Assembly: GCA_947644695.1 (NCBI GenBank)
Contig: CANSAJ010000001.1
Location: 17,348-81,347 of the forward strand
DNA from: an uncultured Bacillota bacterium
Lineage (GTDB): Bacteria > Bacillota_I > Bacilli_A > RF39 > UBA660
Direction: 5' to 3'
Length of the DNA: 64,000 nucleotides
The notes under the pieces are model-generated. The model searched no databases and had not been told where the DNA came from. It saw only the letters and a program-made list of their open reading frames with translations. The translations under genes and the position numbers were made by a program. Within the stretch, counting starts at the first letter, position 1. Every line of letters begins with the position of its first letter. Shown one piece after another: positions 1,481 through 59,960 of the stretch.

Positions 1481-1936
1481 CTATATTCTTAATGATGCAT
1501 AGTAGTTTTTGTCATTATATTTATAATTAACTATTATGTATCTTTCATTTTTATTATTGTTTATTGTTCTTAAATATTCTTTTAGAGAATTTGGTAAATT
1601 GTTTTCGGAAGAAAGTAATAATGAGTTTATAGAGTCAATATTGATGTATATTTTTTGTGCGTTTAGTGAAGACATTAGTGTTTGGCATGTTGTGCTCATA
1701 TAAGAATTACAGTTAGATGGTGTAATTTCTAAGTATCCATTACTGTTAGTAAAATTATTAGTTGTGAATGTTGATCTAATGGTGTCAGTTTTATATAAAT
1801 CTCCTATGTTATCAAAGAATTTTCTACTTTCTATATCTGAACTTATTTTAATATATGTTCCATAAATACCTACAACAGTTATTAAAAGTACTATAAGTAC
1901 TATTAAGGTTTCCATAAATACAAATCCTTTTTTCAT
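1481..1936 (-). CDS. Minor pseudopilin with prepilin-type N-terminus
   Basis: N-terminus MKKGFVFMETLIVLIVLL has the G-F-x-x-x-E prepilin motif plus a TM helix. Its start overlaps the stop of the upstream small pilin-like ORF (TAATG). Confidence 0.55.
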   Translation of the reverse strand: MKKGFVFMETLIVLIVLLITVVGIYGTYIKISSDIESRKFFDNIGDLYKTDTIRSTFTTNNFTNSNGYLEITPSNCNSYMSTTCQTLMSSLNAQKIYINIDSINSLLLSSENNLPNSLKEYLRTINNNKNERYIIVNYKYNDKNYYASLRI

Positions 1937-51556: not shown

Positions 51557-51577
51557 AAGAACTCAAAAAAGTTCTTT
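51557..51577 (-). terminator. Rho-independent terminator of polC
   Basis: AAGAACT-7nt-AGTTCTT stem overlapping the polC stop, followed on the minus strand by TTTTTCTAT. Confidence 0.5.
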
Positions 51578-54500
51578 ATACAAATAAATCTAAGCTAAGT
51601 TGACTACTTTCTGGTAATTCGTCTAATACACCAAGGCCTCTCATTACATCTATTAATGTTTGAGATACTTTTCCTCTTATTTGTAAATCTTCTATACTTA
51701 CAAATGGTCTATCGTTTCTTTCTTCGACTATTTTCTTTGCGGCTACATCTCCCATTCCTTCAAGTGCTGTAAATGGTGGTATTAATCCTGTTCCGTCTTT
51801 ATTTATTTTAAACATTGTTGCTTCGCTTTCTGTTAAGCTAATGTTGTCAAAGTGAAATCCTCGATGCATCATTTCATTACATATAGAGAGAGAAGATAAT
51901 ATTGATTCTTCTTTGTTAGTTCTTTCATATCCTTTTGCTTCTAGATTCTCTATAGCTTGTTTTACTATGCTATGTCCTTTTATCATTGACTCAATATCAA
52001 AATCAGATTGTCTTATGCTTAAATAGACTCTGTAATAATTAAGTGGATGATATAATTTAAACCATGCTACTCTGAATCCATTTATTACATATGCAGCTGC
52101 GTGGGCTTTTGGAAACATGTATTTTATTTTTTCACAAGATTTGATATACCAATCTGGTACTGTATGCGCAGCCATTATTTCTTTAAATTCTATCCATTTA
52201 TCTGGTTCTTTAGCTGTTTTACCTTTACGAATAAATTCACTCATTTTGAATGCTGTTCCATTATCTATTCCACATTTTATTAAGTATATCATTATATCAT
52301 CACGACATCCAATTACTTTATCAAATTCACATATTCCATCTACAATTAAGTCTCTTGCATTTCCATTCCAAACATCAGTACCATGTGATAATCCTGATAT
52401 TTTTATTAAGTCAGCAAATTTTGTTGGTCTTATTTCTTCTAACATTTTTATTACAAAGTTTGTACCAAATTCAGGTACTCCGAATGTTCCTGTGGCGCAT
52501 TTTATTTCTTCTGAAGTTACTCCTAAAGCTTCTGGACTATTAAATAAACTTAGTACTCCTCGATCATCTAATGGTATGTCATTTATATCAATTTGTACAT
52601 CATCACTTAAATATTTTAAAACTGTTGGATCATCGTGTCCAAGTATATCAAGTTTTAAAACATTTTCTTCTATATCATGGAATTCAAAGTGTGTTGTATA
52701 CCAAGCTGCTTCTGTATTTTCTGCTGGATATTGATATGGAGTGAAGTCAAATACGTCTTTATAATCTGGAATAACTATTATTCCACCTGGGTGTTGTCCA
52801 CTGGTTCTTTTTATTCCTGTTATTCCTTTTGCAAGTCTTTCCATTTCTGGTCTTCTCATTGTTATGCCTTTGTCTTCAGCATATATTTTTACAAATCCAA
52901 ATGCTGTTTTTTCGGCTATGGTTGATACTGTTCCTGCACGATATACATTATGTTCACCAAATAAAACTTTAGTGTAATCGTGAGAGAATGCTTGATATTC
53001 GCTTGCTAAGTTTAAGTCTATATCTGGAGTTTTATCTGCATTAAATCCTAGGAATGTTTCAAATGGTATATCTTGTCCTTGTCTTTTCATAAGTGCACCA
53101 CATTCACAAGTTCTTTCTGGCATATCAAATCCACTTCCATAGCTTAAGTTAAGAGGGTTTCCTTCGTCGTCAGTAAATATACTTTTTTTACAATTTGGGC
53201 ATACATAGTGTGGTGGTAATGGATTAACTTCAGTTATACCGCAGAAAGTTGCAACTAGACTTGAGCCTACGCTACCACGAGAACCCACAATGTATCCGTG
53301 TGCATTTGAGTCTTCAACTAGACGTTGTGCGATTAAGTAAATAACATCGTATCCACCATTAATTATTCCTGATAGTTCTTTATCTAAACGAGTTGCGATT
53401 AATTCAGGTAATTCTTCTCCATATATTTTTGTGGCATTTCCATAAACTGTATCTTTTATTATTTGTACTGAGTTTTCCATTCTTGGTGGGTTTAATCCAG
53501 GTTTTACAATTTCTACATCTTCAAACATATCTGCTATTAGATTAGAGTTAGTTACTACAATTTCGTATGCTTTTTCAGTTCCTAAGAATTCAAATTCATT
53601 TAGCATTTCGTTAGTTGTCATAAAGTAGGCATTAGGTATAGTTTTTATACTTGGTTTATATAAAGGATGGAATCCACCACCTGGTTGTTTTTGAGTTATT
53701 AAAATTTCTCTATATATATTGTCTTCTGGGTCTAATGTATGAACATCACCTGTTGCGACTACCATTTTACCTATTTTTTCAGCACATTTAACAATTTTTG
53801 TAATTATATTGTATATATCAGATTTACTAGATACATCACCACTTTCTATTAAATAATCAGTTATAGATGGTGGGTTTACTTCTATAAAATCATAATATTT
53901 CATTAAACTCATAAGTTCATCTTCGCCACTTCTTTTTGCAGCTTCAAATATTTCTCCATTGACACATCCAGAGCCTATTAATAAACCTTCTCTTAAACTA
54001 GATAATACACTTTTTGGAGTTCGTGGAGTTCTATAAAAGTATTTTGTTGTAGCATAACTTATTATTTTAAACATGTTTTTTAGTCCAGTGTTGTTTTTTG
54101 CAAATGCAGTTATGTGATAAGGCCTATTTGTTTTATAAGCAAGTGATGGATCTACCATGTTTTTAAGATCACTTATAGTTTCGTAACTAGTTCCTAAATC
54201 TTTTATCATTTTGTCAAAAACATATGCAGTTCCCTCTGCGTCGTAATCTGCACGGTGGTGAGCATTTTCATCCCATGGTACATTGTATCTCTTTACCAAA
54301 GCGGTTAAATTGTGTCTTCCAGAATCAGGGTTTTGTGCTTTACTTATTTCCATTGTATCTATTACTACATTGTCAAATGTTCCAAGGTTGTATTTTTTAT
54401 AAGCGCTTTCCATAAATGAAATATCAAAACGGGCGTTTTGTGCGACCATTGGTGCGCTACCTATCCATTCTTTGAATTTTCTAGTTACAGTTTCTTCATT

Positions 54501-55877
54501 ATCTTTATCTTTTAGCATTTCATCAGTTATGTTAGTAATGGATGTTATTTCTTCTCTTAGAGGACGACCTGGGTTTATTAATTCGTCAAATCTATCAGTG
54601 ATAGTTCCGTTTTTAATTTTTACAGCACCTATTTCTATCATTTGATCACCAGCAGAGGCGTTGAATCCTGTTGTTTCTGTATCAAATACAACATATTCTG
54701 TATCTTTTATAGGTATATCACTATCTTTATTTATGATTAAAATTTCATCATTTACTGCGAATAATTCTACTCCAAAGAGTACTTTTATGTCACCTTTCTT
54801 TTTATAAACTTTTGGGAAGCATTGAATTCCATTTTTGTCTGTTATTCCAACAGCTTTATGTCCAAAGTGAGCTACTTTTTTTAGAAGTTTGTCTGGAGCA
54901 ATTAATCCATCCATTTGGCTCATTGTAGTGTGACAATGAAGTTCTACTCTTTTTACTTCTGCATCATCAGTTCTTTTTACTGTTTCTCTATTAAATGTTT
55001 CTACATCTCTTATATTTAATACTAAGTCGCCTACATATGTATCATGTTTTACATAGCCTTTTATTTTATACCAAGAACCTTCTTGTATTCTTTTTGATAG
55101 TGTTTTTGCAACTTCTTTATCTTTTGTAAATATTTTGGCTATTAGTGAATCTGTGTAATCACTTATTTTGTATGTAAATATGGTAAAGCCTTTTGCTGTT
55201 TCTACTACATCTATTCCAAATACAAATACTTCTACGCAGACATCAGACATTTCAGCGATTATGTGTTTTAAGTCTATTTTTTTAGAACGAATTTCATTTC
55301 CAAAAATAACACTTGTTTCTTTTATAACTGGTTTTATATCTAGTTCAGTTATTTTTTTTTGTTTTATTAACTCTTGTGATTCATTCATTTTTTCATCATT
55401 GATTTCTGGTATTATTTCTATAAATTTATATCCCATGTTTTCTAGGAATTCTTTCATATCATTTTGTATGCTTTTTATTTTTTCTATTTCTGCTGTGTTA
55501 GCAACTTCTATTTTTATAGTTGAATCTTCTACAATAAAGTCACTTTCTTTAATGCTATTTAACATCGGACATTTATCTTGGTATTTTTTGAATATATAAA
55601 TAGCATAGTCTTTTAATAAGTCATTAGTACCATGATTGAATACAAAATATACTTTTTCTACTTCTTTTAAGTTATTTGATTTTTCACATAGTATATTAAA
55701 CGTATCAGTATCTATCATTTTATTTAATGTAATGTATAATGTCCAACTCTTTTCTTGGGTGTCCACTACTACTTTTTCTACTTTCGAATCTAAAAATTTT
55801 TCTTCTAAATCTTTATCAAAATTTATTTTATTAAAAAATCTTAATAGTTTGTCATCCATTATTACACCTTCTAACAT
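51576..55877 (-). CDS. polC: DNA polymerase III PolC-type (Gram-positive replicative polymerase)
   Basis: 1433 aa. OB domain, split PHP, inserted DEDDh 3'-5' exonuclease (VVFDTETTG), polymerase core and C-terminal tandem HhH. Confidence 0.97.
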   Translation of the reverse strand: MLEGVIMDDKLLRFFNKINFDKDLEEKFLDSKVEKVVVDTQEKSWTLYITLNKMIDTDTFNILCEKSNNLKEVEKVYFVFNHGTNDLLKDYAIYIFKKYQDKCPMLNSIKESDFIVEDSTIKIEVANTAEIEKIKSIQNDMKEFLENMGYKFIEIIPEINDEKMNESQELIKQKKITELDIKPVIKETSVIFGNEIRSKKIDLKHIIAEMSDVCVEVFVFGIDVVETAKGFTIFTYKISDYTDSLIAKIFTKDKEVAKTLSKRIQEGSWYKIKGYVKHDTYVGDLVLNIRDVETFNRETVKRTDDAEVKRVELHCHTTMSQMDGLIAPDKLLKKVAHFGHKAVGITDKNGIQCFPKVYKKKGDIKVLFGVELFAVNDEILIINKDSDIPIKDTEYVVFDTETTGFNASAGDQMIEIGAVKIKNGTITDRFDELINPGRPLREEITSITNITDEMLKDKDNEETVTRKFKEWIGSAPMVAQNARFDISFMESAYKKYNLGTFDNVVIDTMEISKAQNPDSGRHNLTALVKRYNVPWDENAHHRADYDAEGTAYVFDKMIKDLGTSYETISDLKNMVDPSLAYKTNRPYHITAFAKNNTGLKNMFKIISYATTKYFYRTPRTPKSVLSSLREGLLIGSGCVNGEIFEAAKRSGEDELMSLMKYYDFIEVNPPSITDYLIESGDVSSKSDIYNIITKIVKCAEKIGKMVVATGDVHTLDPEDNIYREILITQKQPGGGFHPLYKPSIKTIPNAYFMTTNEMLNEFEFLGTEKAYEIVVTNSNLIADMFEDVEIVKPGLNPPRMENSVQIIKDTVYGNATKIYGEELPELIATRLDKELSGIINGGYDVIYLIAQRLVEDSNAHGYIVGSRGSVGSSLVATFCGITEVNPLPPHYVCPNCKKSIFTDDEGNPLNLSYGSGFDMPERTCECGALMKRQGQDIPFETFLGFNADKTPDIDLNLASEYQAFSHDYTKVLFGEHNVYRAGTVSTIAEKTAFGFVKIYAEDKGITMRRPEMERLAKGITGIKRTSGQHPGGIIVIPDYKDVFDFTPYQYPAENTEAAWYTTHFEFHDIEENVLKLDILGHDDPTVLKYLSDDVQIDINDIPLDDRGVLSLFNSPEALGVTSEEIKCATGTFGVPEFGTNFVIKMLEEIRPTKFADLIKISGLSHGTDVWNGNARDLIVDGICEFDKVIGCRDDIMIYLIKCGIDNGTAFKMSEFIRKGKTAKEPDKWIEFKEIMAAHTVPDWYIKSCEKIKYMFPKAHAAAYVINGFRVAWFKLYHPLNYYRVYLSIRQSDFDIESMIKGHSIVKQAIENLEAKGYERTNKEESILSSLSICNEMMHRGFHFDNISLTESEATMFKINKDGTGLIPPFTALEGMGDVAAKKIVEERNDRPFVSIEDLQIRGKVSQTLIDVMRGLGVLDELPESSQLSLDLFV

Positions 55878-55946
55878 CTACATTTTATTATAACAGTATA
55901 GATATAGAAGTATCAAGAGCATTATTTCTATTTTAGATGGAAATAT

Positions 55947-56456
55947 TTATAATTTAATTTTTACTTTTACTCTATTATATTCATTGCATTTTTCTTCTAA
56001 TAATTTAAAGTTGCAGCATCTTTTCATTATGTTTTCAGGAAGATTATTATTTGTGTAATCAAAATATAGTGCTTTGGCTCTGGTTATTACTAAATTATAG
56101 TTTCTATTTAACCAATAGACTTGAGACTTTAATAAATTACTATAATTTATATCATTTTTATCATTAGTGTTAATTATAGTTATGTTTGAAGATTTTACTG
56201 GCAGCATATTATTATAATTAATCGCTCCTAAGTCACCATTATTTAATCTTAAGAAGTCAATTGTATCATACATTTTTGAATGTTTAGGTTTTGGACTAGA
56301 TAATGGTGCAAAATATAATAATTCATTTACACTAAATAAAATACCCACAAATGGTCTCAACTTTTTATTGTTATGATTATATGGTACACGATTGTCAAAT
56401 TTTCTTAAATAATCACAATAATCTTTATTTATTAATGCTAGTTTTATTTTTTGCAT
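55947..56456 (-). CDS. toxN: Type III toxin ToxN/AbiQ-family endoribonuclease
   Basis: The 169-aa product from the internal Met (MQKIKLALINKDYCDYLRKFDNRVPY...) aligns closely with lactococcal AbiQ (YLKEFDDKVPN; FIGIV...YLAPLTSPKKWH; CNFSLLEEKY). The supplied ORF (to 56525) is extended upstream to an earlier ATG. Confidence 0.85.
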   Translation of the reverse strand: MQKIKLALINKDYCDYLRKFDNRVPYNHNNKKLRPFVGILFSVNELLYFAPLSSPKPKHSKMYDTIDFLRLNNGDLGAINYNNMLPVKSSNITIINTNDKNDINYSNLLKSQVYWLNRNYNLVITRAKALYFDYTNNNLPENIMKRCCNFKLLEEKCNEYNRVKVKIKL

Positions 56457-56512
56457 GTGTTCTCCTTTCTTTGGTTTTTTATAATGTATTTTTTTGATTT
56501 CTGTCAAATAAA

Positions 56513-56540
56513 ACACTAAAGACAAATGTCCTTAGTGTTA
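56513..56540 (-). terminator. Hairpin between antitoxin repeats and toxin gene (intra-operon terminator/attenuator, as in ToxIN loci)
   Basis: AACACTAAGGACA-tt-TGTCTTTAGTGTT, a 13-bp stem with 1 mismatch, followed on the minus strand by TTATTTGA. Confidence 0.4.
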
Positions 56541-56550
56541 CTTTTTTGAT

Positions 56551-56694
56551 TTCCTGTCTCAGCCGGAATCGCTCAACTTTTTTAACTTCCTGTCTCAGCC
56601 GGAATCGCTCAACTTTTTTAATTTCCTGTCTCAGCCGGAATCGCTCAACTTTTTTTATTTCCTGTCTCAGCCGGAATCGCTCAACTTTTTTAAT
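56551..56694 (-). ncRNA. toxI: ToxI/antiQ-like antitoxin RNA: four tandem 36-nt direct repeats
   Basis: Plus-strand unit TTCCTGTCTCAGCCGGAATCGCTCAACTTTTTTAA(C/T) repeated 4 times (one unit is 37 nt). It is GC-richer than the surrounding DNA. It is on the same strand as, and immediately upstream of, the ToxN/AbiQ-like gene. Confidence 0.75.
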
Positions 56695-56730
56695 TTTTAT
56701 TAAATATTACATAATTTCTTATGTAGTCTA

Positions 56731-56759
56731 ATATTACCACTTATTCTCTTGCATGTCAA
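56731..56759 (-). promoter_or_regulatory. Sigma-A promoter for the toxI-toxN operon
   Basis: The minus strand reads TTGACA-17nt-TAATAT about 35 nt upstream of the first repeat. Confidence 0.5.
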
Positions 56760-56792
56760 TAGATTATAATTTGGGTTTTAAATCTTATTATT

Positions 56793-59700
56793 TTATTCAT
56801 CATTATCCATAGATAATAAATTTTTGATGTCTTTTTCGGTTAGTTTAGAAATTATATTTTGATCTCTATCTTTGCCTTCAATTAGTTTATCACTTAGTAT
56901 TTTTTTCTTTTCTTGTAGTTCAAGTATTCTTTCTTCAATAGTGCCTTTACAAATTAGCTTAATTACTTCTACAGTGTTTTTTTGTCCTATTCTGTGTGCT
57001 CGGTCTGTCGCTTGATTTTCAACTTGAGGATTCCACCATAAGTCTAAATGTATTACTACATCTGCGCTGGTTAAATTTAGGCCAGTTCCTCCAGATTTAA
57101 GAGTTATTAGAAATACATTTGTGTCATCTATATTAAATTTGTCTACAAGTTCCATTCTTTTTTTAGAGGATACACTTCCATCAATTACGAATGTTGAGAT
57201 GCCATTGTTGGTAAATTCTCTATTAACTATATCTAAGGCTGTTTTATAGCTTGTAAATAAAAGTATTTTATGGCCATTTTTTATTATGTCTTTTGTTAAT
57301 TCAATTAAGTGCTCTATTTTTGAGCTTTCACCTTCATATTCGTCATAAATTATTTTTGGATCTATGCATAGTTGTCTAAGTCTAGTTAGTAATTGGAGAA
57401 TTTTAAAGTTTCCTTTTTTAAATCCTTCTCTAGCTATTATTTCATCCATTTCTTTTTTTGTCTTTTCAAGTTCTACTAAATATAGTTTTTTTTGTTCTTT
57501 AGTTAGTTCAATATATATGTTATTTTCTATTTTATCTGGTAGTTCTTTTACTACATCTTTTTTCTTTCTTCTCAATATAAATGGTGATATTTGTTTGTTT
57601 AAACTACTAAGTGATTTTAAATCTTCTTCATTTATGTCTTTTATACTATATTTCTTATTAAATGAGACTAGATTAGCTAGATATCCTGGCATAATAAAAT
57701 CAAATATGCTCCATAGTTCTAGTACTGAGTTTTCTAGTGGCGTTCCTGTTAAAGCGATTTTTGTATTAGCTTTCAGACTTTTTATTACTTTTGTCATACC
57801 TGCGGTAGGATTTTTAATATTTTGTGCTTCATCAATTGCTATTAGTTCGAAGTTTATATTCATATATTCTTCTTTATCTTGTCTTACTAAACCATAAGTT
57901 GTTATAAGCACATTAATATTATTTAAATTTTCTAAGTCTTCTTTTCTTTTAGTTCTATTTTCTGCTAATACTTTATATTTTATTTCACTTCCAAATTTAT
58001 CAAATTCATTTTTCCAGTTATATACTAAAGAAGTGGGTGCGACTATTAAAATTAAGGCATCTTTTTTTTCTTTTAGTATTTGTTTTATGAAATTAATCAA
58101 TTGTATAGATTTTCCTAATCCCATTTCATCTGCTAAGATTCCGCCAAAACCACATTTATAAATATTATATAACCATTTTACGCCTATTTGTTGATAGTCT
58201 CTTAGTGTTTCTTTTTCTTTTTTAGTGAATTGTATTTTTGTTTCTTTATATGAATTAAATTTATTAATTAAGTCATCAAAAAGATTATTAGTTTTGATTA
58301 TATGGTATTTATCGTTCTTGACACTGTCTAAATATATTGCACGGTATTTAGGTATAATTCCTTGACCATTTTTAATATCTTTATTTGATAATTCCATATC
58401 TTCAACTAGAGCATCTAATTCTTTTAAATCTTCTCTTTCGCTTAGATTAATTATGTCTCCATTTTTTAAACGATAATATTTTTTGTTGGTTTTTAAATTT
58501 TCTAATATATTTACTATTTCACTTGGTTTTATTTCACCTAGATCAAATTCATATTTTAATATATTATCTTCGCCTATTGAAAAACTTGAACGAATGTTAT
58601 TTTCTTTTAGTATATTAGTTTTCTTTATTTTATCTGATGTAAATACTTCATATTTTTTTGCTAGTTCAGTTAGATTTAATTCTATAAAATCACCTATTAA
58701 ATCTATATCACTTATATAAATTTTTTGATTTTCTACTTCGAATCCATAGCTTAATAGATCATTAATTAGTTCATCTTCTGTTTCTTTATCTCTAATTATT
58801 TTTGTGTTTTTTTCAAAGTAATTTATAGTTTCGCTATTATATATTAGTTTTATTTCACAAGTTATTAAATCTTCTAAAAAATCTAAATATATTTCTATTT
58901 CTGGTTTTACTCCTAACATTATTTTATCTTCTAAAGAGGAGTCTATTTTTACATTATTTTTTACTAAAGGTAATATTCCTTCACTGAATAATTCTAAATC
59001 TTCTTCTTTGAAAGTAATTTCATTTAACCTACTATTATGCATTAATTCAATTATTCTAGAAATCTTTTGGGGTAATATGTATAAAGTATCATCTTTAATT
59101 ACATAGGTAAAAGATCTTTCTAAGAAAATTACATCTTTTGTTTTTATCTCCAATTTATAAATATCATTGTCTTTGGTTAAATTAATATTAAATGGGTTTT
59201 CTGTTGATATATTGTTTATTTTAATGTTGTTATTTATCATAAACTTTTTATTTTTTAATTTAGATATTAGTATTGATATTTTTTCTATTGGAATTAACAT
59301 ATTATTACCATTACTATAGTAGAAATTATTGTTTTTTATTTCTAAAAGACTGTCTAATATTTCTTCATCTGTTTTTGAAAAATAGTGTTTACTTGGATCA
59401 TAGGTAAAGTCTTTTCCAAAGTAAATTTCTTCATTTTTATTTTCATAAGCTTTTAGAAAAGCACTTAGTTTATTTGTCATGCTATATAGTTTAGTTTCGC
59501 CTATTTTAAATCTTAATCCAACAGTTTGGTGGTAACCTCCATAAAATTCTAAGCAAGCTTCTAAAGTTAATTGTTTTTTTAGTTTTATTTCATTTGATTT
59601 TGGTTTCGTATAGAATTCTTTTAGTATTTCTTTTGATATTCTAAGGCTTTTTTCTTCAGGAGTAGTATCACTAGTTAATTCATTAAAATTTAGAAGAACT

Positions 59701-59960
59701 GCGGCTATATGTTTACATGTCCCTGTAGACTCATATGCTCGGCATGAACAAGCTCCATAAGTGTATTTTTTATCTCTTTCTGAAATTGTTACATCATAAT
59801 AATCATAACTAGATTCTGATTCTACTTCAAACTCATGATAAGTTATGCTTCCTATTTCAGTTGATTCGATATATCTTATATAATCTAGTAAATAATTTTT
59901 TCCTCTTATAAATGCATTACCACCTACAAGATTTCTTATTTCAATTTCATTTAAATTCAT
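56793..59960 (-). CDS. SNF2-family helicase/ATPase with N-terminal SWIM zinc finger
   Basis: SWIM CxC..CxH (GACSCRAYESTGTCKHIAAV). SNF2_N motifs I (ADEMGLGKS) and II (DEAQNIKN). Helicase-C motif VI (QATDRAHRIGQ). 1055 aa. Confidence 0.85.
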   Translation of the reverse strand: MNLNEIEIRNLVGGNAFIRGKNYLLDYIRYIESTEIGSITYHEFEVESESSYDYYDVTISERDKKYTYGACSCRAYESTGTCKHIAAVLLNFNELTSDTTPEEKSLRISKEILKEFYTKPKSNEIKLKKQLTLEACLEFYGGYHQTVGLRFKIGETKLYSMTNKLSAFLKAYENKNEEIYFGKDFTYDPSKHYFSKTDEEILDSLLEIKNNNFYYSNGNNMLIPIEKISILISKLKNKKFMINNNIKINNISTENPFNINLTKDNDIYKLEIKTKDVIFLERSFTYVIKDDTLYILPQKISRIIELMHNSRLNEITFKEEDLELFSEGILPLVKNNVKIDSSLEDKIMLGVKPEIEIYLDFLEDLITCEIKLIYNSETINYFEKNTKIIRDKETEDELINDLLSYGFEVENQKIYISDIDLIGDFIELNLTELAKKYEVFTSDKIKKTNILKENNIRSSFSIGEDNILKYEFDLGEIKPSEIVNILENLKTNKKYYRLKNGDIINLSEREDLKELDALVEDMELSNKDIKNGQGIIPKYRAIYLDSVKNDKYHIIKTNNLFDDLINKFNSYKETKIQFTKKEKETLRDYQQIGVKWLYNIYKCGFGGILADEMGLGKSIQLINFIKQILKEKKDALILIVAPTSLVYNWKNEFDKFGSEIKYKVLAENRTKRKEDLENLNNINVLITTYGLVRQDKEEYMNINFELIAIDEAQNIKNPTAGMTKVIKSLKANTKIALTGTPLENSVLELWSIFDFIMPGYLANLVSFNKKYSIKDINEEDLKSLSSLNKQISPFILRRKKKDVVKELPDKIENNIYIELTKEQKKLYLVELEKTKKEMDEIIAREGFKKGNFKILQLLTRLRQLCIDPKIIYDEYEGESSKIEHLIELTKDIIKNGHKILLFTSYKTALDIVNREFTNNGISTFVIDGSVSSKKRMELVDKFNIDDTNVFLITLKSGGTGLNLTSADVVIHLDLWWNPQVENQATDRAHRIGQKNTVEVIKLICKGTIEERILELQEKKKILSDKLIEGKDRDQNIISKLTEKDIKNLLSMDNDE

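Follow-up and report, generated by a model that had tools for sequence, protein, structure and literature searches.

Is the cassette that lies between polC and a gene for an SNF2 helicase in an uncultured Bacillota bacterium (GTDB lineage Bacteria; Bacillota_I; Bacilli_A; RF39; UBA660) a type III toxin-antitoxin (TA) locus and, if so, to which family does it belong and what could it do for its host? The DNA analysed, referred to here as the window, is the whole stretch of 64,000 nucleotides taken from contig CANSAJ010000001.1 (assembly GCA_947644695.1). The cassette occupies positions 56760..55947 on its minus strand, where a promoter, an array of 36-nt repeats, a terminator hairpin and an open reading frame (ORF) of 169 aa follow one another. 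We have computed the toxin family, its fold and active-site residues, the array, the terminator, the promoters, the covariation in the pseudoknot and the purifying selection. The locus is very probably a chromosomal type III TA system of the ToxIN family, and the cassette is apparently complete and functional, judging from its sequence. An earlier reading of the DNA letters (the original prediction) had already proposed a ToxIN/AbiQ-like type III module, and that identification is borne out by a ToxN recognized by both sequence and fold, a repeat array on the same strand, a terminator, a promoter and the covariation of a pseudoknot. As a new member of a family that is well known and very widespread, it is ordinary.

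The toxin gene and its ribosome-binding site (RBS) are located as follows.

55947..56456, minus strand: toxN, 169-aa ToxN/AbiQ-family endoribonuclease toxin, with an ATG start and the stop codon TAA at 55949..55947
56461..56468, minus strand: RBS of toxN, AAAGGAGA, 5 nt upstream of the ATG and kept in the sister-species locus L005

The resemblance of this ORF to ToxN and AbiQ was confirmed over its full length by the database search, in which the product matched Pfam PF13958 (ToxN_toxin) at E=1.2e-46, with 159 bits (cut-off 25 bits) and over profile positions 2-159 of 159. The PADLOC model for AbiQ also matched the product (1.5e-36), and NCBIfam gave no family match for it. The sequence relatives found in the PDB were all ToxN/AbiQ, i.e., ToxN_Bt (4ATO, 4e-23), ToxN_Pa (2XD0, 1e-15), ToxN_Ec (7D8O, 2e-14) and AbiQ (4GLK, 2e-9). 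An AlphaFold2 model made with 36 homologues had a predicted local distance difference test (pLDDT) score of 90.1 and a predicted template modelling (pTM) score of 0.85. When it was compared with known structures by Foldseek, the top four were 4ATO, 7D8O, 2XD0 and 4GLK, with template modelling (TM) scores of 0.76-0.80 and probability 1.00, the next being MazF at a TM score of 0.32. The 169-aa product is therefore predicted, on the basis of this model, to have the ToxN fold. The active-site residues described for ToxN_Pa and ToxN_Ec are K33, T52, S53 and K55 (PMC8860590), and their counterparts in the window ToxN are R34, S53, S54 and K56. None of R34, S54 and K56 varies among the 36 homologues, in which the conservation of S53 reaches at least 90%; a change of K to R at position 33 is also found in E. 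coli ToxN clusters 4 and 5 (PMC8860590). A longer version of the ORF, of 192 aa and starting at a TTG, was discarded; it would enter the terminator and is supported neither by the homologues nor by the gene call of the Joint Genome Institute (JGI).

Two other groups of type III systems, CptIN and TenpIN, follow the same logic of a tandem-repeat RNA antitoxin, a terminator and an endoribonuclease toxin, with toxins of different families. We have rejected membership in either, given that the toxin is not a homologue of CptN or TenpN and that its PDB sequence and fold matches were to ToxN/AbiQ alone. No CptN structure appeared among the PDB sequence matches or the significant fold matches, and at E<=1 Pfam returned, besides ToxN_toxin, just a sub-threshold chance match to Tet_res_leader (E=0.019, 15 bits against a cut-off of 27 bits).

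Upstream of toxN, and on the same strand, is the repeat array that would encode the antitoxin RNA, toxI.

56540..56696, minus strand: toxI array, with a 36-nt period, 4.4 copies and 95% matches according to Tandem Repeats Finder (TRF)
56691..56656, 56655..56620, 56619..56584 and 56583..56548, minus strand: the four full 36-nt units
56547..56540, minus strand: 8-nt partial unit, AAAAAAGU, which provides the final A-rich junction

In RNA sense the unit reads AAAAAAGUUGAGCGAUUCCGGCUGAGACAGGAAAUU. The four 36-nt repeats are thus present where they had been placed by the original prediction, although the consensus given there was that of the plus strand, i.e., the reverse complement of the RNA. The four units vary at unit positions 34 and 36 alone, both outside the predicted stems, and their 22-nt core, GCGATTCCGGCTGAGACAGGAA, occurs exactly four times, always at the toxIN locus (0 occurrences in 100 shuffles). 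As had been noticed before, the repeats are richer in G+C than their surroundings (40% in the array versus 26.7% in the whole window), toxN itself having 22.5%. For comparison we have used 84 loci with toxN relatives, 80 of them genomic loci whose toxins are 52-86% identical and the other four metagenome contigs with an identical protein. A tandem array was found upstream of toxN and on its strand in 80 of these 84 loci, with a period of 34-41 nt and 2.2-4.7 copies.

The repeats of these relatives allowed us to look for conserved pairing in an alignment of 51 distinct units, each a TRF consensus unit from a homologous locus. The layout common to all of them is an A6-G leader, the 5' arm of a first stem (S1, 3-4 nt), G-A, UUCC(N) as the 5' arm of a second stem (S2), the S1 3' arm, a loop of at least 5 nt, (N')A-GGAA as the S2 3' arm and a 3-nt tail; in the window unit S1 is AGC/GCU and S2 is UUCCG/C(A)GGAA. 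This is an H-type pseudoknot, in which 93.9% of the cells were paired over the 51 units versus 84.2 +/- 0.9% in shuffles, with 54 double-sided changes versus 12.4 +/- 5.6 (0 of 500 shuffles as high), values whose significance is overstated by the shuffle control because the units are phylogenetically related, something mitigated by the controls in which the pairing was slid (12-54% paired) and by the presence of several pair types. The covarying pairs of S1 are 11-23 (GC 36, AU 11) and 13-21 (UA 18, CG 15, UG 13), and those of S2 are 17-38 (UA 47, CG 4) and 20-34 (GC 23, AU 12, CG 12). The strand of toxN must be the one of the functional RNA, since on the complementary strand each U-G pair would become an A-C mismatch. 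The compensatory changes in both stems support a repeat RNA folded as an H-type pseudoknot with A-rich single-stranded tails, the structure for which the original prediction had suggested to look. The minimum free energy (MFE) fold of the whole toxI transcript pairs adjacent repeats; being blind to pseudoknots, it was used for the leader and terminator hairpins alone.

The same data bear on whether the repeats might work as DNA (iterons or operators) or encode a protein, rather than produce an antitoxin RNA. Tandem repeats can indeed be protein-binding sites, and a mechanical ORF crosses the array on the opposite strand. However, the compensatory changes keep two interleaved helices whose G-U pairs are valid in the toxN-sense RNA only, a promoter and a terminator bracket the array on the toxN strand, and the unit length varies among relatives between 34 and 41 nt, so that a translated repeat would not survive the frame shifts. 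We regard a role as DNA or as coding sequence as hardly credible. The ORF in question (61 aa, plus strand, 56546..56731, beginning MISCLSRNRSTFLTSCLSRNRSTF) was rejected as a gene; it arises mechanically when the array is read on the opposite strand.

The elements that flank the array are these.

56759..56731, minus strand: P1, the toxI promoter, with -35 TTGACA at 56759..56754, a 17-nt spacer, TG at 56739..56738 and -10 TAATAT at 56736..56731 (consensus scan, 10/12)
56709..56724, minus strand: 5' leader stem-loop ACAUAA-GAAA-UUAUGU with a 6-bp stem, located where the toxI transcript is predicted to begin and formed in the MFE fold as well as in the centroid fold
56539..56506, minus strand: intrinsic terminator that separates toxI from toxN; its 12-13-bp stem occupies 56539..56512 (AACACUAAGGACA / UGUCUUUAGUGUU) and is followed by a U-rich tail UUAUUU at 56511..56506

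The TTGACA-17-TAATAT promoter and the 13-bp hairpin before toxN, both announced by the original prediction, were recovered. Taken on its own P1 is weak evidence, as a 10/12 match was reached in 8% of the shuffles (p about 0.08). What makes it credible is that 66 of the 71 loci that were scored have a promoter of at least 9/12 before the array, and a promoter is accordingly predicted upstream of the array from sequence. The stem-loop of the leader keeps its sequence in L005 (about 1620..1640), where the adjoining leader sequence differs, and it may be a stabilizer of the 5' end. The scan of 1.1 kb found no terminator-like site besides this terminator hairpin (0.2 sites expected), which is part of the MFE and centroid folds. 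It persists in relatives with other stem pairs, AACTAGAGAT/ATCTCTAGTT in L005 and ACTAGAG/CTCTAGT in most others; this conservation was judged from the sequences themselves, as the strict tail rule of a simple hairpin finder missed many of them. The locus has the features by which Blower 2012 recognized type III systems (PMC3401426), i.e., an array upstream of the toxin and on its strand, a palindromic terminator between the two and a promoter upstream of the array, the last being preferred there but not strict (PMC3401426).

The comparison with L005 indicates that the locus is maintained by selection. This sister species has a PolC 81% and a GyrA 84% identical to those of the window, and its toxIN lies between gyrA and polC. 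A different context in L005, which would have implied a mobile cassette, was considered and rejected, polC being downstream and gyrA upstream. Between the two species toxN has a ratio of non-synonymous to synonymous substitutions (dN/dS) of 0.10 at a dS of 0.84, and the toxI unit differs at 2 of its 36 positions. The low dN/dS, the near-identical unit and a terminator stem swapped for another complementary pair point to purifying selection on both toxN and toxI.

This is relevant to the idea that the locus could be an inactive relic, with a non-functional toxN or array. In its favor is the lower number of repeat copies in some assemblies with an identical ToxN, which have 2.2 (L001 and L003) or 1.2 (L004) copies compared to about 4.2 in the window and L002. 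The differences are most simply explained by the collapse of a 36-nt tandem repeat in short-read assembly, which is the likely cause since the Logan contigs of relatives L089-L092 end 116 nt upstream of toxN, inside the array or at its edge; real copy-number variation among strains was set aside for the same reason. Against a relic stand also an intact ORF, conserved catalytic residues and the dN/dS of 0.10, together with the conservation of promoter, terminator and RBS. An inactive locus is therefore very improbable, and we take the ToxIN system to be probably a working one.

Among the characterized systems, the best solved-structure relative of the window toxin is that of ToxIN_Bt, from Bacillus thuringiensis plasmid pAW63 (4ATO; E=4e-23, 31% identity, TM score 0.78). 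ToxIN_Bt has the same order of promoter, array, terminator and toxN, and its repeat, taken for this comparison from pKBT142 (its ToxN and 4ATO share 92% identity), also has the same order, i.e., an A6 run, S1 (GGU), the S2 5' arm, the S1 3' arm (ACC), a 5-nt loop, the S2 3' arm and a short tail. The A-rich junction found here fits the Bt cleavage site AAA|AA (PMC8860590). The two systems differ in that the Bt unit has 34 nt in about three copies versus 36 nt in 4.4 copies in the window, in that the RBS of Bt follows the terminator directly whereas the window has a 55-nt spacer with a promoter-like element that we have called P2, and in that ToxIN_Bt is plasmid-borne while the window locus is chromosomal, beside polC.

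A side observation concerns the pKBT142 locus itself (L085, 514..615). Its adjacent repeats show compensatory changes in S2 (ACUC/GAGU versus GCCU/AGGC), and along the array the scores of the Rfam ToxI model RF02519 drop from 59 bits to 39. There is thus covariation within a single array, in a system closely related to the crystallized one.

ToxIN_Pa (Pectobacterium atrosepticum pECA1039; 2XD0, 2XDB, 2XDD), the founding example of joint abortive infection (Abi) and TA function, and ToxIN_Ec (7D8O) share with the window locus the ToxN fold (TM scores 0.76-0.80), the APL(T/S)SPK active-site strand and a pseudoknotted antitoxin with A-rich cleavage sites on either side. Their toxins are 24% identical to the window ToxN, which has R34 in place of K33 and S53 in place of T52, and their cleavage motifs are AA|AU and GAA|AU (PMC8860590), the AAAU junction being absent from three of the four window units. 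Both are proteobacterial and plasmid-borne and have been described as single-promoter operons with about 90% termination (PMC4147584). The original prediction had held that repeat length and copy number both differ from ToxIN_Pa; the copy number does (5.5 there), but the length of the ToxI_Pa repeat is equally 36 nt. Its comparison with AbiQ/antiQ of Lactococcus lactis (pSRQ900, 4GLK) was valid, although none of the other three solved relatives is as distant as AbiQ. The likeness consists of a toxin of the ToxN family (TM score 0.80), 35-nt repeats and a Bacillota host, and the differences are 23% identity (E=1.7e-9), 2.8 repeats and the location on a plasmid.

Of the annotated relatives in the plasmid collection, the nearest were those of Clostridium botulinum p1BKT015925 and Fusobacterium polymorphum pKKCOM1330A (41-42% identity), the BKT015925 locus being already in the catalogue of Blower 2012 (PMC3401426). 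Both have repeats of 37-38 nt led by an A run, with the same order of S1 and S2 and followed by a terminator; they differ from the window in being plasmid-borne, in having a terminator that abuts the RBS and in repeats that are unrelated beyond the A run and an S1 of the GGUG/ACC type. The toxin annotated as ToxN/AbiQ in F. polymorphum pKKCOM1330A (L087, 695..1567) has 290 aa, about 120 aa above the usual size, which suggests a C-terminal extension or a fusion.

From these systems a mechanism can be put forward for the window locus, for which we infer by analogy the cleavage site, the formation of a complex, toxicity with its neutralization, and an anti-phage role. P1 would give a precursor RNA with four 36-nt repeats, most transcripts ending at the intrinsic terminator. 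The product of toxN would be a sequence-specific endoribonuclease that cuts this precursor in the A-rich junctions between repeats, the predicted cut being AAA|AAAG by analogy with the AAA|AA of ToxN_Bt (PMC8860590); the unit register that Rfam uses on the Bt repeats agrees with AAA|AA cleavage. Each unit would then fold as an H-type pseudoknot whose single-stranded tails fill the active sites of ToxN, giving a closed and inactive ring of RNA and protein. If synthesis of the unstable RNA stopped, classically because a phage shuts off host transcription, free ToxN would accumulate and degrade cellular and phage RNA, leading to aborted infection or growth arrest. The activation model, with its shut-off of host transcription by the phage, is that of PMC10853763. 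A feature specific to this clade would be that P2 also drives toxN, in such a way that two promoters, beyond the read-through of the terminator, set the synthesis of toxin and antitoxin.

The distribution of the family confirms how common it is. There are 1602 toxN homologues in a set of 5.8 billion proteins, and a search of 185,579 species-representative genomes gave 558 confirmed matches, of which the best 80 come mostly from gut metagenome-assembled genomes labelled Bacilli, Tenericutes or Clostridia. The name that the NCBI gives to the homologues is "type III toxin-antitoxin system ToxN/AbiQ family toxin". With more than 1600 homologues and a protein family that is already annotated automatically, the novelty of the locus has to be lowered. 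It is a clean example of type III TA and abortive infection in an uncultured and very AT-rich gut bacterium and otherwise brings no new principle. On the other hand, the large clade to which it belongs (toxins 55-86% identical, with the 558 matches given above) is without a characterized member and has repeats that the Rfam ToxI model misses, and the alignment of 51 units could seed a new RNA family, improving the annotation of antitoxin RNAs that are now missed by genome pipelines. Plasmid-borne relatives of toxN were at most 42% identical, and the phage collections yielded three distant matches among 50,697 phage records and one IMG/VR contig.

The position of the locus is also informative. 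Beside the window, where polC and toxIN cover 51576..56760, toxIN lies directly upstream of polC in at least four species-level relatives, namely L005, L091 and L093 (PolC 74-75% identical) and L028 (PolC 46%), L091 having a 104-aa ORF between toxIN and polC; in most other relatives it is found in unrelated contexts. The adjacency to polC may have been inherited vertically, may mark a hot spot of insertion or may reflect a functional link. That this position is kept by four or more related lineages of species rank (PolC 74-100% identical), and recurs in L028, suggests a long vertical residence unlike the turnover of defense islands, and is one of the reasons to consider that this working type III pair has a role other than defense against phages, i.e., as a selfish addiction or genome-stabilizing module or as a stress-responsive growth brake. 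The near absence of homologues from phage collections points the same way, and ToxIN_Bt has been reported to stabilize its plasmid during sporulation (PMC4615649). Characterized systems, on the contrary (ToxIN, AbiQ and ToxIN_Ec), all abort phage infection (PMC3401426, PMC10853763), while the strong purifying selection on toxN and toxI fits an adaptive function without saying which, and the two roles are compatible with each other. We consider a role apart from phage defense unlikely, although much less so than the alternatives discussed above, and keep abortive infection by a ToxIN system as the preferred reading.

Where the locus departs from the known pattern is in the region between the terminator and toxN, which contains a second candidate promoter.

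56507..56478, minus strand: P2, candidate toxN-proximal promoter, with -35 TTGACA at 56507..56502, an 18-nt spacer and -10 TATAAA at 56483..56478 (11/12)

P2 sits in the 55-nt spacer that separates the terminator from the RBS of toxN, its -35 overlapping the tail of the terminator and its end being 21 nt before the ATG. The original prediction had described a ToxI-terminator-ToxN architecture; these elements are all present, but the description was incomplete, as the conserved P2 stands between terminator and toxN. A match of 11/12 was found in 0.2% of the shuffles of the 64-nt spacer (p about 0.002); the first consensus scan had passed over it because that scan demands T at position 6 of the -10. 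The sequence is TTGACA-18-TATAAT in L005 and in further assemblies of the species of the window, where the hexamers are kept and the spacer has diverged, and L091, L093 and L089 have TTGACT/TTGCAA-17-TATAAT at the position of P2. Over the 70 relatives, an exact TATAAT was located 10-50 nt before the toxN ATG in 49, about 46 of the 70 ending 16-27 nt before it, whereas 8% would be expected in that window from base composition and 26% of other ORFs carry one. The Bt, C. botulinum and Fusobacterium loci, in which the terminator abuts the RBS, have no P2 and agree with the single-promoter operon of the reviews (PMC5086642). The conserved hexamers indicate that P2 is probably a promoter proximal to toxN, which would uncouple the transcription of the toxin from that of the antitoxin. 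In known type III loci about 90% of the transcripts terminate before toxN (PMC4147584).

Some relatives have in this region a palindrome similar to the LexA or Cheo box (CGAAC-N4-GTTCG), for example CGAACATTTATTCG and CAAACATACGTTTG, mostly between the -35 and the -10. Boxes of at least 8/10 were found in 6 of the 70 loci versus 0.22 expected from flanking sequence (L036, L037, L063, L075, L020 and, 110 nt upstream of toxN, L034), and weaker ones in L039, L046, L055 and L057. A LexA box was searched for in the P2 of the window, and none was found there. Transcription of the toxin could be under SOS control in part of the clade, and a LexA-boxed P2, if real, would put a type III toxin under induction by DNA damage. 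The more general proposal, that toxN in this clade has its own sigma-A promoter after the toxI terminator, resulting in two separately controllable units, with a LexA/Cheo-like box in a subset, is tentative, and we lean slightly towards doubt. A literature search gave no relevant report of an internal promoter or of SOS control in type III TA systems, and the clade-wide P2 and the LexA-like boxes are the sole leads here beyond what is known. If P2 is functional, the antitoxin-to-toxin ratio would be set differently in this clade, which offers a simple test of whether attenuation at the terminator is essential to the control of type III systems.

Several of these observations weigh against a ToxIN system of the classical kind, beside the relatedness of the aligned units mentioned above. 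The S1 stem has just 3 bp in the window locus. The presence of P2 departs from the single-promoter bicistronic operon as which type III loci have been reviewed (PMC5086642). Phage and plasmid collections contain almost no members of the clade, so that a role in defense cannot be argued from a mobile-element context. Finally, the Rfam ToxI model RF02519 had no match on the array at E<=10 (55500..57200) and none at its gathering score of 50 bits across the whole window; the Rfam scan of the region gave only chance matches to miRNA and snoRNA families on the terminator. The silence of RF02519 can be put down to divergence, since the model does match the Bt repeats, scoring 59, 47 and 39 bits on those of pKBT142. 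By its sequence the array appears ToxI-like in function but is outside the RF02519 family.

The genes on either side are on the same strand as toxIN, the SNF2 helicase upstream and polC downstream, both present as the original prediction had placed them.

56793..59960, minus strand: SWIM/SNF2_assoc/SNF2 helicase, 1055 aa, between gyrA and toxIN
55859..55916 region, minus strand: near-consensus polC promoter TTGATA-18-TATAAT with TG, 11/12

The helicase is absent at the syntenic position in the sister species L005, where the order is gyrA-toxIN-polC. We have not taken it as part of a defense system, as its PADLOC matches to DpdE, ZorD and DrmD reflect the common helicase core. No terminator was found between toxN and polC, and for this reason transcripts of toxN may read into polC. 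The start of polC is probably the ATG at 55859 (MDDKLL, 1427 aa, RBS GAAGGTG), in agreement with the JGI gene call, and not the one listed at 55877.

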